In this document: positions 50,258-57,919 of the stretch, piece by piece
Position numbering within the stretch: position 1 is the stretch's first letter
How the letters are laid out: the number at the start of each line of letters is the position of its first letter
Assembly: GCA_035510735.1 (NCBI GenBank)
Contig: DATKGN010000004.1
Coordinates: forward strand, 92,705-156,704
DNA from: Patescibacteria group bacterium
GTDB lineage: Bacteria; Patescibacteriota; Microgenomatia; UBA10105; UBA927
Reading direction: 5' to 3'
Length of the DNA stretch: 64,000 bases
Program-made: the position numbers and the translations under genes
Notes under the pieces: generated by a model
Told to the model about the DNA's origin: nothing
What the model saw: the letters and a program-made list of their open reading frames with translations, nothing else
Databases searched by the model: none

Positions 50258-52081
50258 ATGAGTGATATAGATGAAATTAAATCCAGACTCAATATTGTTG
50301 ACCTCATCGGCAAGCACGTAAAACTTAAGAAGGCCGGCCGGAATTTTAAAGGCTTATGTCCTTTTCATGGTGAAAAAACTCCTTCATTTGTCGTCAGCCC
50401 TGACCGGCAGATTTTTCATTGCTTCGGATGCGGTAAAGGAGGAACCATCTTTGACTTTTTTATGGAATTTCATCACGTCGATTTTGCTGAGGCCCTGGAA
50501 GAGCTTGCAACTGTAGCTGGTGTCAAACTGACAAGAAGTTCGTTTGCATCTGGCGAGAGCAGCGTGAAGCAAAAGATCTATGAGGTAAATCATCTTGCAA
50601 GTGAGTATTACCACTACGTCCTTATGAAGCATCCGTCAGGACAACGCGGGCTCATGTATCTCAAAAACCGCGGTATCTCGGATAAATCCATGAAAACGTT
50701 TTCTCTGGGCTACAGTCCAAACAGTTGGGACGGACTATATAATTTTTTACGGAAGAAGGGCTATGACGATGAGATCATGGAGAAAGCAGGACTTGTCATC
50801 CGGATGGACAGGCAGACGGCAAGCGGAAGAGGTTATTACGACCGGTTTCGGGGGCGGGTGATGTTTACGCTCAAAGACCACCGCGGGAATGTGGTTGGGT
50901 TTGCCGGACGGGTTCTTGATCCGAACGCGAAAGAAGCGAAATACATTAATACGCAGGAAACGCCTGTGTACCTTAAAAGTAATCTTTTGTATGCACTTGA
51001 TGTAACAAAAGATGCAATTCAAAAAGCGAACGAAGCTGTTGTCATGGAGGGAGAACTTGATGTAATTTCATCTTTTCAGGCGGGAATTCCCAATGTCGTT
51101 GCCATTAAAGGTTCCGCGCTAACAGAGGGGCATGTCAGGCTCCTTCGGCGGTTTACCGAACGGTTAACGTTTGCTCTTGACAGCGATATGGCGGGTGACG
51201 CGGCAGCCAGGCGGGGGATTGAAATCGCCGATCACGCAGGACTTGACATGAAAGTCGTGACGCTGCCCTCCGGGAAAGATCCCGATGATGCCGCCCGTGA
51301 AAATCCTGGGCTTCTCAAGAAAGCGATTAAAGACGCAGAGCCCATTTATGATTATTTCCTCGCATCCGTCAAAAAGCGGTTTGACCTTAACTCCACATTC
51401 GGGAAACGGAAAGCAAGCGAAGAACTGATGCCCGTGATCGCGAAAATAGATAATCCGATCGTGCAGAATCACTATGTTAAAAAGATTGCCACACTCCTTG
51501 ATACGTCAGAGGTTGCAATAGATGATAGTCTTGAGCGGGTAGAGCGGGGGTTGCCGCGCGAGAAGCAGGCGCAGCAGGGTGAAGCGACAGCACAAAATAC
51601 GATTCTCTCCCGTCCTGACAAATTAGAGGCATATCTTTTGGCGATGCTTCTTCAGGGGAAGACGACAGACCTCTTCGAAGATTTACAGGAGGCCGGACTT
51701 CTTCCTGAATTTAACAACCCAGCGATTTTGAAGATTATTGACAGCCTTGTGACCTATCTATCGCCGAAAGATGGGGAACCCGAGGGGGCGAAAGTATTTC
51801 TTCTTCGGGATTTCGCCGATTCACTGCCGGCGGAGCTTCTGCCGACGTTAGATGAAGCATGTCTCTGGGATATTGCTGACTTTTTAAGCGATGAGGAATT
51901 ATTTATGCGTGAATGGTTGCGGACGCTCAAAGATTTCCATAAAGTCGTATTACGGCGGAAGATCCAGGATCTTACAAAGGGTACGCAAAATGATTCCCTT
52001 GATTCTTCAAAGTCGGCAAATTTGCAACGGCAACTTACTAAATTGACCGATACGTTACGGGGTCTGGATAAGTCAAGCTAG
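50258..52081 (+). CDS. dnaG: DNA primase DnaG
   Basis: Zinc ribbon [11 protein letters not shown]...CFGCG. TOPRIM EGELD...DSDMAGD. Confidence 0.9.
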
Positions 52082-52184: not shown

Positions 52185-53273
52185 ATGACCAAACAACGCA
52201 CACTTGCAACTGTTGCTGATCTCATTCACGAAGGCAAAGAAAACGGCTTCGTGACCCAGGAAGACATCCTCTTCCTTTACCCCAAGCCAGAAGAACGCAT
52301 CAAAGAGCTTGATCAACTGTACGATAAACTCATCAGGGCCGGGATTGACGTCTTTGAAACTACCTCCCAGGAAACCGATAAAGAAGCGACAAAAAGCATT
52401 CAGGATCTGGAAAAAGAGATAGAAGCCCTCGCAAAAGCGACCAGTGAAGGTGTATCAGATCCGGTCCGGATGTATCTTAAAGAAATCGGGCGGATACCGC
52501 TTCTTACATTCGCCGATGAGATTTCACTTGCGAAGCGATATGAAAAAGGTGACCGGAAAGCGAAGAAAAAACTTATCGAATCAAACCTCCGTCTCGTTGT
52601 ATCTATCGCGAAAAAATATATCGGCCGCGGCATGTCACTTTTGGATCTTATCCAGGAAGGAAATCAGGGATTAATCCGCGCCGTTGAAAAATACGATTGG
52701 CGGAAGGGTTATAAATTCTCGACATACGCGACCTGGTGGATACGGCAGGCGATTACGCGCGCAATAGCCGATCAGGCGCGCACGATCAGGATTCCTGTCC
52801 ACATGGTTGAAACGATCAACCGGTTTGTGAGGGCTTCCCGCCGGCTCATGCAGGATTTGGGACGCGAACCCACTCCCGAGGAAATTGCAAAAGTCATGGA
52901 AGTCGACGTCACGAAAGTCCGGGAGATTATGAAAGTGTCCCAGGAGCCGACCTCTCTTGAGACTCCGGTCGGCGATGAAGAGGATAGTCATTTGGGTGAT
53001 TTTATTTCCGATCCGGGTCCGACACCGTATGAACAGACGAGCCGGCAGTTATTAAAAGAACATATGGAAGAAGTGCTGACGACTCTCTCCGACCGTGAAA
53101 AGAAAGTACTTATCTTACGATTTGGTTTGGAAGATGGAAGACCACGGACTCTTGAAGAAGTCGGTGCACAGTTCGGCGTTACCCGTGAGCGCATCCGACA
53201 AATTGAAGCGAAAGCCCTTCGGAAACTCCGCCACCCGTCTCGTTCGAAGAAGCTGAAAGACTATTTGGAATAA
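52185..53273 (+). CDS. rpoD: RNA polymerase sigma-70 factor RpoD (short form)
   Basis: Regions 2-4 conserved ([18 protein letters not shown], RpoD box, region 4 HTH). Follows dnaG as in the conserved MMS operon. Confidence 0.9.
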
Positions 53274-53777
53274 TTACTTGGCCCCAAGAATCCGCATCAA
53301 TTGTGGCGTTATTTCCGATGATCCTTCCTTATTATTATATATTGTGAGATGCGGGATGCGCACGGGTTCAAAGAGGGCGCTCATATGCCTCAGATACGGA
53401 AGTCCCAGGTTGAAATAGTTTCGTTTCATATACCGTTTTTCCCGGATCGGATTATCGGTTGTAACGAGGATAAATTGTGTAGAGGGAATCGCATCCAATA
53501 ATTGCCTCCGCATGAATTCTTTGATAAACGCCTGATGGACGACGAGCTTTGTTTCTTTGTGCATCAATTTTTTAATTGACGCCACCATATTTTCGATAAA
53601 AGCCTTCCGCATATCATCGGTTATTATTTTTTTCTCGTAGAGGGCTTGTTTCATCTCTTCCGGCAGATCGTCGTCGCCATTATAATGGATATAGCCAAAT
53701 TCGCGTTCAATAACCTTCGCGACATACGATTTGCCCGCGCCCGGGAGGCCAAAAACGACAATGAGTTGACTCTTCAT
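53274..53777 (-). CDS. P-loop NTPase, putative small-molecule/nucleotide kinase
   Basis: Walker A GLPGAGKS near the N-terminus. Start at internal ATG. No further specific motif. Confidence 0.5.
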   Translation of the reverse strand: MKSQLIVVFGLPGAGKSYVAKVIEREFGYIHYNGDDDLPEEMKQALYEKKIITDDMRKAFIENMVASIKKLMHKETKLVVHQAFIKEFMRRQLLDAIPSTQFILVTTDNPIREKRYMKRNYFNLGLPYLRHMSALFEPVRIPHLTIYNNKEGSSEITPQLMRILGAK

Positions 53778-53835
53778 GGCGATCATTGTATCAAATTTCA
53801 GATATAAACCCTTACGCACATGGTAAAATAACGGC

Positions 53836-55014
53836 ATGACGAAAACCCTCGTGAGCTGTGTTGTGGGATTACTCCTTGGAGTTGTGGGTGCCGTTGCATT
53901 TATTTATTTCGGCGGATCGCTTCCTCTTCGGTTTGATAACCCCGCCCTTGCGACACTCAATATCAATAAACCACAGGTTGTCGGATTTTTACCGTACTGG
54001 CTCCTTGATAAAGCGGATAAACCGTATGAGCAGTACATTACGACGCTCACGTATTTCGGCTTGTCTCTCAACAATGACGGAACCATTATGAAACTTACCA
54101 ATCCACAGGAAGAGGAACCAGGATGGACGACGCTCAAAGGTGACGCATATGCTAAACGGATTGCCGACGGCAAAAAAGCAAACTTAAAACAATCGCTTCT
54201 GATCATCAGCGGCGATGATTCTATAATTCATGACGTGCTTCAGGATCCGGTCACAAGCGCCAATAATTTGATGGGCGACGTTGCCCCGATTATGAAAGAT
54301 AAAGGGTTCACCGACCTCAATCTTGATATCGAAAGCTTTATGGCAGCCTCACCAAGCGGACAGGCAGCGTTTACCCAGTTTGTTAGAACGGTAAAAGACG
54401 CGCTGGTTGCCCAACATCTCGGAACGTTGACGTTGGATCTTATCCCCATTTCTCTTGTCAAGTCGACACTCTATGATGCGAAGGCACTTGGAGCGCTCGC
54501 CGATTCAATTGTTCTTATGACCTATGATTATCATTACACCGGATCGTTTACCGCCGGAGCCATTGCGCCGGTCGGAGGGTCGGGAACAACAGTTGAATAT
54601 GACGTTGAGACCGCGGTGAAAGAGGCGCTCAAAGTTATGCCGAAAGAAAAAATACTTCTCGGAATTCCTCTTTATGGTTATGAATGGGAAACGATCGATA
54701 GCGCGACAGAATCAGCAACCATTCCCGGCGGATCGGCAACGGCAAGTACCAGGCGTGTTGCCGAAATTCTCGCGTCGTGTACCAATTGCACCCGTGGGAT
54801 TGATCCCGTATCCCGCGAACCGTACGTCATTTATCCGGAAGGCGATTATTACAATGAACTCTACTATGAAGATGAATCGTCGATGAAGGAAAAAATCGCT
54901 TTGGCCCAAAAATATAATCTCGGGGGCGTCGCACTGTGGGCATTGGGATACGAGGATGATACGATGCTTAAGCCTCTTGTCACCTACAAAAATTCTATTT
55001 CGTTATCATGGTGA
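53836..55014 (+). CDS. GH18-like glycoside hydrolase domain protein with N-terminal TM anchor
   Basis: DLNLDIE (DxxDxE catalytic-type motif) and MTYDYHYTGS typical of GH18/YaaH-like proteins. Confidence 0.55.
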   Translation: MTKTLVSCVVGLLLGVVGAVAFIYFGGSLPLRFDNPALATLNINKPQVVGFLPYWLLDKADKPYEQYITTLTYFGLSLNNDGTIMKLTNPQEEEPGWTTLKGDAYAKRIADGKKANLKQSLLIISGDDSIIHDVLQDPVTSANNLMGDVAPIMKDKGFTDLNLDIESFMAASPSGQAAFTQFVRTVKDALVAQHLGTLTLDLIPISLVKSTLYDAKALGALADSIVLMTYDYHYTGSFTAGAIAPVGGSGTTVEYDVETAVKEALKVMPKEKILLGIPLYGYEWETIDSATESATIPGGSATASTRRVAEILASCTNCTRGIDPVSREPYVIYPEGDYYNELYYEDESSMKEKIALAQKYNLGGVALWALGYEDDTMLKPLVTYKNSISLSW

Positions 55015-55056: not shown

Positions 55057-55722
55057 TTATTGCAGTGGGTGAACGAAGTAAACGCTTCGCGTAGGATCGT
55101 CTATGTTTGCGCGGTGACCCGCTGTCAGATTCCAAACGTGCGTATTATTGTCATTGTCGACAAGCGCGAATTTGAGAGATCCTGTTTTAACGGTTATGGA
55201 CATATCGGAATCAATGACGTTAATGATCGCTGTCCCGGAATTAATTGATACCAATGTGTGTAAAGCGCGAACAGACATGGGATACCCGCTATCCGTGACA
55301 TCGTACTGAATTTTGCCGCTTTTTTGCTCCAGAACCATATCCGTGGGAAACAGATTAGCAAACGCAAGCTCCGCGTTTTGGTTAAGTGTAGCGGTTACGA
55401 TTCCGCTTACCGTCGCGACGGCTATCCCATTTTCATCGGTTGCGACAGATTCGCCGGTCAGGATTTGCCCACCAGGAGTAGCATCCTGATACGAATCATT
55501 AGTACGCGTCAGCTGCGTTACTTTGTTGTGGAGAATTGTTAACGTGCCGCTTACCGATTGAGATGGGGGAGTGAGAATAAACGGCGTCGGTGAAACCGCC
55601 GGTGATTGAGACGTCATTGAAGTTGGAGTATATGAATTATTGGTATGGCGGATATATTGGAATCCCCACACAGCGATAACGCCGATTGCAAAGAAGAGGG
55701 TGGTAAGTAAGAAGTTTTTCAC
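55057..55722 (-). CDS. secreted hypothetical protein
   Basis: N-terminal TM/signal. T/S-rich region. Confidence 0.35.
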   Translation of the reverse strand: MKNFLLTTLFFAIGVIAVWGFQYIRHTNNSYTPTSMTSQSPAVSPTPFILTPPSQSVSGTLTILHNKVTQLTRTNDSYQDATPGGQILTGESVATDENGIAVATVSGIVTATLNQNAELAFANLFPTDMVLEQKSGKIQYDVTDSGYPMSVRALHTLVSINSGTAIINVIDSDMSITVKTGSLKFALVDNDNNTHVWNLTAGHRANIDDPTRSVYFVHPLQ

Positions 55723-55793
55723 ATAGTGATTATATCATTGGTAGCGCACTAAAACGCTTAAGAATCTGGTATAATACGAACGTTCTTTTACAT

Positions 55794-56091
55794 TCCCCTG
55801 TAGCTCAACGGTAGAGCGGCTTCCTGTCACAAGGCAGCGCCAAATAGCAATATTTGGATGAACATCGGGCTAATTCGGGGGACTCCTGCACCGCGTTGGT
55901 TTAGGACAATCCCGAGCTAAATTTCTTTTGCAACGCAAATGGACTCGTCCTGAGCGAGGTCGAAGGATAAATGTGTAGAGACTATATACCCGACTCCCGA
56001 TTTTATCGGGATGATGAGATAGTCCAGTCTTTTTGGTAACAGAAAGCAAACTGTAAGAAGAAGGTTGCAGGTTCGAATCCTGCCGGGGGAG
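55794..56091 (+). tRNA. tRNA-Asn(GUU) interrupted by a group I intron (exons 55794-55827 and 56054-56091)
   Basis: The joined exons give a canonical 72-nt cloverleaf. Acceptor UCCCCUG/CGGGGGA, D-stem GCUC/GAGC, anticodon stem GCUUC/GAAGA, loop CUGUUAA, T-arm GCAGG-UUCGAAU-CCUGC, discriminator G. Very similar to E. coli tRNA-Asn. Confidence 0.7.
55828..56053 (+). ncRNA. group I (self-splicing-type) intron in the tRNA-Asn anticodon loop, ORF-less, about 226 nt
   Basis: 5' exon ends in U and intron ends in G. P1 hairpin cugu/gcag with a U.G at the splice site. P-like aauucggggga. P7 candidate ggacu (55941-45) with aguCC in the S-like element gagauaguCC (56016-25). 55842-55855 aaatagcaatattt resembles the start of the Tetrahymena LSU intron. 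Confidence 0.6.
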
Positions 56092-56118
56092 CAATTTCTA
56101 CGGATTTCTTCGGATTTT
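56086..56118. repeat. 33-bp direct repeat, copy A (overlaps tRNA-Asn 3' end), putative attL-like site
   Basis: ggggagcaatttctacggatttcttcggatttt. Identical copy at 61616-61648. Confidence 0.7.
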
Positions 56119-56143: not shown

Positions 56144-57919
56144 GTGAATAAAGAACTCCTCGAAATACTTTCAGGGTTTAAGCGAACGGTACGGCTCATG
56201 GATAGGTCAGAGAAGATCACGTTGGTTGTGGCCTCCGTTCTCATGCTTATAACCGGCGTGCTGACCAACTTGCCTGCAATAATTTTAGGCCGGTTAGTCG
56301 ACACATTGGTCGGTCATCCGAGTATTCAATTTAGTGCAGCGATTCCGTTTATCGGTCTCATTGTTGTCATCATCATTATCCGTGAGGTGCTCACAGTTAT
56401 CAGAAAATATCTTGTGGAAAACATTGCTGCGCTTACGGAAAAGAAACAAACCGTCGCCGTCATTGACCATCTCTTAAAAACAGATATAGCTGTGATAAAT
56501 GAACAACAGATTGGCTCATTACATGGAAAGGTATTCCGCTCCATTGAAGGTCTGGTGAGTCTGATTAAACTTGGTTTTCTGGATTTTTTTCCCGTATTTT
56601 TTAGTGGCATTGCGGCTATAGCAATAGCATTTTTGCAGAAGCCGCTCCTGGCGTCGGTGATGATACTCGTCATACCCACCGGTCTTTTTATCATCATAAA
56701 ACAAATATCTTCACAAAAGGGCTTACGGGTCGCATTTCTTCGGAAACAGGAGACGATTGATGGAGCTGTGGTAGAAATGCTGGGAGGCCTGGAAACGGTG
56801 AGGGTCGCCAACACCACTGATCAGGAGGTTGGGAAAATCGAGCTCGTCGCGGAAGAGTTACGTAAAAAAGAGATTAAGCATCATATAGCCATGGCCCTGT
56901 TTGATTCTGCAAAATACCTGAATGAGGGATTTTTCTATATTTTAGTTATCAGTCTATCCATACTGTTTTCAGCTCAAGGACTCATCAGCCGCGGCGACAT
57001 ACTTGTATATTCCATACTTTTTTTGAGTATCACCGGCCCACTGCGGGAGATTCACCGGATCCTTGATGAGGCCCATGAAAGTTCCATCAGGGTAAATGAC
57101 TTATATGATCTATTAGGAGAGCCTATTGATGAATCATTTAAAACTACCGCAGGAGGAGTGTCTTCTTTGCCAAAAAGAAAAAATGTCATTGAAATTAATA
57201 AATTATCCTTTAGCTATCCGACAAAGAAGATTAAAGTTTTGGACGGTATCAACTTAACTATTAAATCAGGAGAAAAGATTGGTATCGCAGGTGCCTCTGG
57301 ATGTGGAAAGAGCACACTCATAAAAATCCTTTTACGGCTAGTCCACGGTTATTCCGGCAATGTTACTCTTTTTGGCAAAGACTTGCAGAGTATAACGAGG
57401 GATGAAATTGGCCAGAAAATTGCCTACGTCCCGCAAAAAGATTACATTTTTTCCGGAACGATAAAAGAAAATATCATATATGGGTGTTTCCGGACAGATG
57501 TTTCCGAAGAAGAAGTTATATCTGCGGCTAAGAAGGCTCATGTTTATAAAGAAATCGTTGATTCCTTGGGCGGTTTGAATGGCAGAGTTGGAGAAAATGG
57601 TAATAATCTCAGCGGTGGCCAAAAACAGAGGTTGGCAATAGCCAGGCTGATACTAAAGTCACCGGAGTTATTTATCTTTGATGAAGCAACTTCCGCCCTT
57701 GATAATACCAATGAAGATCTGATTCAGAAAAATATAGAAGAGCTCTATAAGGATAAAACGATGATTACGATTGCACATCGGCTAACCACGCTCAAAAATA
57801 CCGACCGAATATTTGTGCTTGGTCAAGGGCATATAGTGCAAGAAGGAACGTTTGAGGAGTTATCCCATAAAAAGGGGCTTTTCCAGGATTTTTTACAGCA
57901 AAGGATAGAAAAGGTCTAA
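56144..57919 (+). CDS. ABC transporter ATP-binding/permease fusion (type I exporter, peptide/bacteriocin-exporter-like without peptidase domain)
   Basis: 6-TM N-terminal domain. Walker A GASGCGKST, LSGGQKQRLAIARL, Walker B IFDEATS. Confidence 0.8.
   Translation: MNKELLEILSGFKRTVRLMDRSEKITLVVASVLMLITGVLTNLPAIILGRLVDTLVGHPSIQFSAAIPFIGLIVVIIIIREVLTVIRKYLVENIAALTEKKQTVAVIDHLLKTDIAVINEQQIGSLHGKVFRSIEGLVSLIKLGFLDFFPVFFSGIAAIAIAFLQKPLLASVMILVIPTGLFIIIKQISSQKGLRVAFLRKQETIDGAVVEMLGGLETVRVANTTDQEVGKIELVAEELRKKEIKHHIAMALFDSAKYLNEGFFYILVISLSILFSAQGLISRGDILVYSILFLSITGPLREIHRILDEAHESSIRVNDLYDLLGEPIDESFKTTAGGVSSLPKRKNVIEINKLSFSYPTKKIKVLDGINLTIKSGEKIGIAGASGCGKSTLIKILLRLVHGYSGNVTLFGKDLQSITRDEIGQKIAYVPQKDYIFSGTIKENIIYGCFRTDVSEEEVISAAKKAHVYKEIVDSLGGLNGRVGENGNNLSGGQKQRLAIARLILKSPELFIFDEATSALDNTNEDLIQKNIEELYKDKTMITIAHRLTTLKNTDRIFVLGQGHIVQEGTFEELSHKKGLFQDFLQQRIEKV

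Follow-up and report, generated by a model that had tools for sequence, protein, structure and literature searches.

A tRNA-Asn(GUU) gene of Patescibacteria, most probably split between anticodon positions 35 and 36 by a compact group I intron

Does the stretch of Patescibacteria DNA analyzed here (contig DATKGN010000004.1, the window, 64 kilobases (kb) in its full length) carry a gene for a transfer RNA (tRNA), and if so, in what form? ARAGORN in its default mode finds no tRNA anywhere in the 64-kb window. A first-pass annotation, which was made from the sequence letters alone, had proposed that a tRNA-Asn(GUU) gene is present and is interrupted within its anticodon by a group I intron. We find this gene at positions 55794-56091 of the forward strand, in two halves (55794-55827 and 56054-56091) which lie around 226 nucleotides (nt) of intervening DNA. 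With a probability of roughly 0.93, it is a Patescibacteria tRNA-Asn(GUU) gene that is split between U35 and U36 by a compact, 226-nt group I ribozyme which lacks an open reading frame (ORF).

The nature of the insert is indicated by the Rfam group I model (Intron_gpI, RF00028), which matches positions 55813-56046 over the full model (1-253) with 74 bits, compared to a gathering score of 50, and an E value of 6.3e-17. This is the sole match to an RNA family in the 64-kb window, where no other was found even at E<=0.1. A group I core is thus present at the level of the covariance model, in line with the ORF-less group I intron of the first-pass annotation. The intron (55828-56053, 226 nt) is preceded by U55827 and its last base is G56053, and these are the same flanking U, terminal G and length that had been read from the letters before. 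Its size excludes a homing endonuclease, and the only ORF is an antisense one of 74 amino acids starting with TTG (55870-56094).

For the exon boundaries, 12 possible ends of the 5' exon were combined with 12 possible starts of the 3' exon into 144 joins, each of which was passed through ARAGORN. The program is permissive and accepts many of the 144 joins, so the rules for group I introns were used to choose among them, namely a U as the last exon nucleotide (U(-1)) and a G as the last intron nucleotide (omegaG). Only the join of 55827 to 56054 combines U(-1) and omegaG with a loop of seven nucleotides and a standard anticodon, and its loop also has U33 and a purine at position 37. Furthermore, a purpose-written split-tRNA finder, based on complementarity in the acceptor, on the T arm and on the D and anticodon stems along with the U(-1)/omegaG rule, returned the same 55827/56054 solution with the anticodon GTT for the window, with no equal-scoring alternative. 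The joined exons form a cloverleaf of 72 nt with the loop CUGUUAA, which ARAGORN identifies as tRNA-Asn(gtt); CCA is not encoded, and CAA stands directly 3' of G73. The product is a tRNA-Asn, the U(-1)/omegaG junction is unique, and the insertion is located between the anticodon nucleotides U35 and U36 of a tRNA with a GUN anticodon. Both the joining of two half-tRNAs and the 35/36 site had been anticipated by the first-pass annotation.

The helices from P1 to P9 are present in the intron (P and J denote paired and joining segments), and the fold from P3 to P9 that had been suspected could be mapped, including the long-range pairings P3 and P7, with covariation (Table 1). The P1 that had been proposed, in which the exon end pairs with an internal guide gcag and places a U.G at the splice site, is borne out, and its pairs, including U55827.G55834, are unchanged in 9/9 related sequences. 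A longer P1 in the Rfam alignment (55817-55825 / 55832-55839) lacks a U.G and leaves the splice site undefined, and it was replaced by the CUGU/gcag helix, which is invariant in the relatives. The proposed P7, ggacu/agucc, was right in part: its 3' strand (agucc) was essentially correct, whereas its 5' strand (ggacu) had been misplaced and is GACUA at 55980-55984, inside the block TAAATGTGTAGAGACTATATACC, which is conserved with published tRNA-Asp introns. Outside the intron, the two exons pair with each other in the anticodon stem (55820-55823 / 56057-56060), which bridges the intron and lies directly next to P1.

Table 1. Features of the split tRNA-Asn gene, its intron and its surroundings (positions in the window)
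Feature	Position	Strand	Remarks
dnaG	50258-52081		upstream of the split tRNA gene
rpoD	52185-53273		upstream of the split tRNA gene
small kinase-like gene	53274-53837	-	upstream of the split tRNA gene
GH18 glycosidase	53836-55014		upstream of the split tRNA gene
hypothetical gene	55057-55722	-	upstream of the split tRNA gene
extended -10-like promoter motif TGgTATAAT	55767-55775	+	putative, read from the sequence; 18 nt upstream of the tRNA 5' end
5' exon	55794-55827	+	acceptor 5' strand, D arm, anticodon-stem 5' strand, loop C32 U33 G34 U35
P1	55824-55827 / 55834-55837	+	exon CUGU with internal guide gcag; loop cacaag; wobble U55827.G55834 at the 5' splice site
P2 hairpin	55840-55857	+	7 bp, GCAA (GNRA) loop; two-sided changes at all 7 pairs among relatives
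P3 5' strand UCGGG	55865-55869	+	pairs with 55989-55993; 3/5 pairs compensatory
P4	55875-55880 / 55910-55915	+	encloses P5; Rfam alignment and covariation
P5	55884-55888 / 55902-55906	+	within P4; Rfam alignment and covariation
P6	55916-55917 / 55973-55974	+	base pairs covary, GC/GU vs GG/CC
P6a extension	55924-55930 / 55961-55967	+	length differs among relatives; outside the alignment pairing counts
P7 (guanosine-binding helix)	55980-55984 GACUA / 56020-56024 UAGUC	+	invariant in 9/9 and in 6/6 sequences
J7/3 UAUA	55985-55988	+	only 4 nt
P3 3' strand CCCGA	55989-55993	+	pairs with 55865-55869
P8 hairpin	55995-56011	+	7 bp; length differs among relatives, poor alignment there (58-73% paired)
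J8/7 UGAUGAGA and P7 3' strand UAGUC (56020-56024)	56012-56024	+	block TGATGAGATAGTCCA exactly common to published Patescibacteria introns
P9.0-like pairing	56026-56028 / 56050-56052	+	encloses P9; 2/3 pairs compensatory
P9	56029-56035 / 56040-56046	+	GUAA loop; 6/7 pairs compensatory
omegaG	56053	+	last intron nucleotide; G before TAA invariant in 9/9 relatives
3' exon	56054-56091	+	U36 A37 A38, anticodon-stem 3' strand, variable loop, T arm, acceptor 3' strand, discriminator G73
ABC (ATP-binding cassette) transporter	56144-57919		downstream of the split tRNA gene

Relatives of the intron were collected by scanning metagenome contigs with the core pattern of the compact form (GAGACTA, 15-45 nt, GATGAKATAGTCC), which occurs in at least 120 contigs (L021-L140). 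Among the matches listed, nine contigs carry a tRNA-Asn(GTT) gene that is interrupted at 35/36 by an intron of 178-352 nt, and the exons of one of these genes (L085) are 97% and 95% identical to those of the window. The window and eight of these nine relatives make up the Asn alignment, onto which the structure derived from the window was laid. Standard pairs are formed by 90.4% of its cells, compared to 38-50% after the 3' partners have been shifted by 1-3 columns, and in a joint alignment with the published Asp introns, of 67% mean column identity, 92.6% of the helix cells are paired (100% in P3, P4, P6 and P7), with 35-52% for the slid-partner controls over both alignments; both controls are biased toward the structure, which was derived from the window. 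The count of two-sided changes is free of this bias: such changes occur at 41 of the 78 pairs in the Asn set, and the observed values were reached by none of 500 shuffles. Compensatory changes are found in P2, P3, P4, P5, the base of P6, P9.0 and P9, as well as in the tRNA itself, where they affect all four tested pairs of the anticodon stem across the intron (100% paired) and four of the seven pairs of the acceptor stem (100% of cells paired). No variation at all is seen in P1 and P7, which is expected of helices that hold the splice site and bind guanosine, respectively. That the helices are kept by compensatory change indicates selection on them.

Is such an intron unusual? The first-pass annotation took the Asn(GUU) host and the 35/36 site to be so, on the understanding that group I introns of bacterial tRNAs are known mainly from Leu(UAA), fMet, Arg and Ile. 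This picture has been superseded, since in a preprint the four classical bacterial tRNA intron types are expanded to 21 (Williams, bioRxiv 2020, 10.1101/2020.01.27.920355), among which is, by the name quoted in PMC13011429, the class Asn.4Ug. The same class is the central subject of a later study (Nakagawa et al., mSystems 2026, PMC13011429; preprint 10.1101/2025.07.03.662931), in which 95 complete Patescibacteria genomes yielded 15 tRNA-Asn(GUU) and 3 tRNA-Asp(GUC) genes interrupted by a group I intron at 35/36; these genes are missed or mislabeled by tRNAscan-SE, ARAGORN and tFind. Precise self-splicing in vitro was shown there for the introns of GCA_016700035.1 (Asn) and GCA_001029755.1 (Asp); the ligated junction was sequenced, and an omegaG-to-C mutant was blocked (PMC13011429). 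The claim of an unusual host and site is therefore outdated.

The window intron matches the published Asn 35/36 introns (Asn.4Ug) in phylum, tRNA and insertion point, in the P1 formed by CUGU and gcag with its U.G wobble, in the omegaG right before UAA, in the J8/7-P7' block GGATGATGAGATAGTCCA, and in the failure of standard tRNA finders on the gene. However, most published Asn introns, including those of GCA_016700035.1 and GCA_016700135.1, have an insert of the P7.1/P7.2 type of roughly 30 nt, which the window intron lacks; those with the insert have the P4/P6 sequences ttgcggg / tccgcagc, as opposed to ttcgggg / tcccgagc in the window, and the validated Asn intron shares 18 nt with the window intron in exact blocks of at least 10 nt. 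Among the published introns there is also already a compact one in tRNA-Asn, which belongs to a second subfamily (GCA_030583765.1; PMC13011429). The closest published introns are those at 35/36 of tRNA-Asp(GUC) in the Microgenomatia genomes GCA_001029755.1 (196 nt, validated) and GCA_030583725.1 (184 nt), which are 74-82% identical to the window intron over aligned columns and share 51-76 nt with it in exact blocks of at least 10 nt, including GGCTAATTCGGGG, AATCCCGAGCTAAAT and TAAATGTGTAGAGACTATATACC. Like the window intron, both are compact without P7.1/P7.2, with a P1 of 4 base pairs (bp; CCUGU/ggcag) and GNRA loops on P2 and P9, while they differ in the host tRNA (Asp with the 3' exon CAC, instead of Asn with UAA), in a shorter P6a and in the sequences of the peripheral helices. 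The core blocks J3/4-P4, P6, J6/7-P7 and J8/7-P7' of the window intron are identical or nearly so to those of introns shown to splice. The tree in PMC13011429 already hints at movement between tRNA-Asn and tRNA-Asp, and the occurrence of one compact lineage in both fits an occasional movement, independent of a homing endonuclease gene, between tRNAs with GUN anticodons via the CUGU target.

In its architecture, the intron also resembles the IC3 introns (Azoarcus tRNA-Ile(CAU), Nostoc/Anabaena tRNA-Leu(UAA)), which are likewise small ORF-less ribozymes in the anticodon loop, with P2 present, without P5abc and P7.1/P7.2, with GNRA loops on P2 and P9 and with the anticodon stem standing in for a long P10; in addition, the motif GUGUAGAGACU is common to the window intron and an IC3-labeled Ile2 intron. 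The IC3 introns, however, insert at 33/34, 34/35 or 36/37 rather than at 35/36, and the Nostoc Leu intron shares no long blocks with the window intron. The helices P7.1 and P7.2 between P7 and P3' are the defining feature of subgroups IA1 and IA2. This architecture is absent from the window intron, in which the 4 nt between P7 and P3' (55985-55988) leave no room for these helices, and the Microgenomatia Asp introns lack the insert as well. Membership in IC3 on the grounds of the compact form and the GUGUAGAGACU motif was not adopted, the nearest relatives being Patescibacteria introns that were kept out of IC (PMC13011429). By homology, an IA3-like label appears likelier, though the architecture also resembles IC3, because no Patescibacteria tRNA intron was assigned to IC and an intron labeled IA3 in the supplement of the same study is equally compact (PMC13011429).

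In the mechanism that we propose, the precursor would fold such that the exon end CUGU and the internal guide gcag form P1 with U55827.G55834, and an exogenous guanosine held in P7 would attack after U55827. The terminal G56053 would then take the P7 site, and the freed 3'-OH of U35 would attack after G56053. The ligation of the exons, kept together by the anticodon stem across the intron, would give the 72-nt tRNA with the loop CUGUUAA and the anticodon GUU, and maturation would end with the trimming of the 5' leader by RNase P and the addition of CCA.

Several points weigh against this reading, in addition to the bias of the slid-partner controls. Splicing of this particular copy, and its splicing without protein, is what we infer by homology, although strongly, because the closest published relative self-splices in vitro at the same position. 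P1 has only 4 bp, which by analogy should be of no concern, because the validated Asp intron has an identical 4-bp CCUGU/ggcag P1. For P10, no convincing complementarity was found between the start of the 3' exon (UAAG) and the P1 loop. Taken by itself, the intron reaches a modest thermodynamic z-score (-2.2). For a pseudoknotted ribozyme this is unsurprising, and a minimum-free-energy fold cannot represent the P7 pseudoknot. In the tRNA, the top pair of the anticodon stem (positions 27 and 43, at 55819 and 56061) is a G.A mismatch. Purine-purine mismatches at 27.43 also occur in the contigs L085, L057, L138 and L044 (as A.G) and in the published Microgenomatia tRNA-Asn of GCA_016700135.1, and because it recurs in these relatives, the mismatch looks like a trait of the lineage and not like damage. 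Finally, only 64 kb of the genome are in view, and a second, intron-less tRNA-Asn may be encoded elsewhere.

The short P1, the lack of an evident P10, the 27.43 mismatch and the possibility of a second tRNA-Asn beyond the 64 kb would also suit a decaying copy, in which the intron no longer splices and the tRNA is a pseudogene, the functional tRNA-Asn being encoded at another place in the genome. We consider this highly improbable: every core block is identical or nearly so to those of splicing introns, the compensatory changes that keep the helices among the relatives indicate selection, the mismatch is lineage-wide, and copies with and without an intron that share an anticodon rarely coexist in one genome (PMC13011429). 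A different host, tRNA-Thr(UGU), results when the intron is placed two nucleotides upstream, at 33/34, with the 5' exon extending to U55825 and the 3' exon starting from U56052. ARAGORN accepts this join as tRNA-Thr(tgt), tFind and ARAGORN often make the Thr choice for this class of introns, in which the ambiguity is common (PMC13011429), and for six relatives our finder also offered TGT, with an equal score. With the Thr boundary, however, the last intron base is C56051 instead of a G, and U55825 stands opposite A instead of G in P1, while GTT is the sole U(-1)/omegaG solution of the finder for the window and for L044, L057 and L085. The tRNA body, moreover, is Asn-like, beginning with UCC and having the discriminator G73, and its 5' half resembles the published Patescibacteria tRNA-Asn exons in a comparison by eye; the Asn junction of published members was confirmed by the sequenced spliced product (PMC13011429). 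Taken together, a Thr host has only the slightest chance of being correct.

The intron mode of ARAGORN (-i) offers yet another solution, a tRNA-Asp(gtc) i(36,212) at 55794-56092, that is, a tRNA-Asp(GUC) with a 212-nt intron from tRNA position 36. This call would put C55828 at position -1, leave P9 and omegaG in the exon and yield no standard anticodon arm, and it is at odds with the covariation in the anticodon stem (55820-55823 / 56057-56060). The same sort of miscall, of boundary and isotype alike, is tabulated for published cases (PMC13011429 Table 1). Between them, this covariation and the U(-1)/omegaG rule refute the Asp(GUC) call, whose probability is practically nil. Within the split tRNA-Asn reading, a functional extension may be considered: the reduced host genome may have no tRNA-Asn besides the split gene, in which case every Asn codon would be decoded only by way of a guanosine-dependent ribozyme, and the intron might be kept as a control of the tRNA-Asn supply by guanosine triphosphate (GTP) or the nucleotide state. 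A regulatory idea of this kind was raised only speculatively by Nakagawa et al. (PMC13011429), and we regard it as improbable here.

The main value of the locus is practical and lies in a caveat for annotation and genome completeness, and no new question is opened by it. ARAGORN misses the gene by default and mislabels it as tRNA-Asp in its intron mode, and a metagenome-assembled genome (MAG) of this organism would therefore seem to be without tRNA-Asn, which distorts completeness estimates based on tRNAs, a point that has also been made in PMC13011429. Rather than being unusual, the intron adds one example of the Microgenomates type to a known and experimentally characterized class. The compact form without P7.1/P7.2, which is published for Microgenomatia tRNA-Asp, also occurs in tRNA-Asn, with at least ten compact tRNA-Asn genes among 120 sampled metagenome contigs.

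The compact core was also encountered in other genes. About 27 of 124 core regions (123 core matches and the window) have flanks that resemble 23S ribosomal RNA (rRNA) by BLAST against L031, a 4,324-nt large-subunit (LSU, 23S) rRNA gene with a compact core. Furthermore, the core splits a tRNA-Lys(UUU) at 34/35 (L101:~983, + strand; L130 is a weaker call) and occurs in a tRNA with a CAU anticodon at 33/34 (L117:~3121, + strand). Three contigs (L027, L054 and L097) contain two compact-core matches each, on the same strand and roughly 320-710 nt apart, which suggests closely spaced introns of one gene, probably of rRNA.

The host belongs to the Patescibacteria (candidate phyla radiation, CPR) and is of the Microgenomates type, judging from its DnaG. 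The named DnaG relatives among the species representatives of the Genome Taxonomy Database (GTDB) are Candidatus Woesebacteria (58% identity), Roizmanbacteria, Paceibacterota and Patescibacteria/Parcubacteria MAGs, and the lineage of Woesebacteria was confirmed to lie within the Microgenomates group of Patescibacteria. The assignment rests on these named relatives because the best match (L006, 95%) and some others have generic or conflicting titles. Six loci (L006, L009, L011, L014, L018 and L019) are titled 'uncultured Gammaproteobacteria', 'Pseudomonadales', 'Verrucomicrobiales' or 'Bacteroidota', whereas their DnaG groups with Woesebacteria and other Patescibacteria MAGs; these titles are probably placeholders or mis-assigned taxonomy.

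At 15 loci related by DnaG among the GTDB species representatives, no group I intron was found, and only L016 has a tRNA-Asn nearby. In this Patescibacteria MAG (L016:223-3828), dnaG, rpoD and a small ORF are followed by an intron-less tRNA-Asn(GTT), in the same order as in the window, and every segment of this tRNA has the same length as in the joined exons, with 45 of 72 positions identical. Because L016 has an uninterrupted, syntenic tRNA-Asn with matching segment lengths, the comparison speaks for the split gene being the lineage's ordinary tRNA-Asn. The same locus as in the window is found in the ENA metagenome contig L001, where the intron has an identical score. Upstream of the tRNA, a two-hexamer scan returned no full sigma-70 promoter, with no recognizable -35, and no terminator-like hairpin was seen downstream of it. 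Across 2-kb bins, the G+C content of the window varies from 34% to 51%, with the low values at 1-10 kb, 22-28 kb and 58-62 kb and the high ones at 12-16 kb and 30-32 kb.

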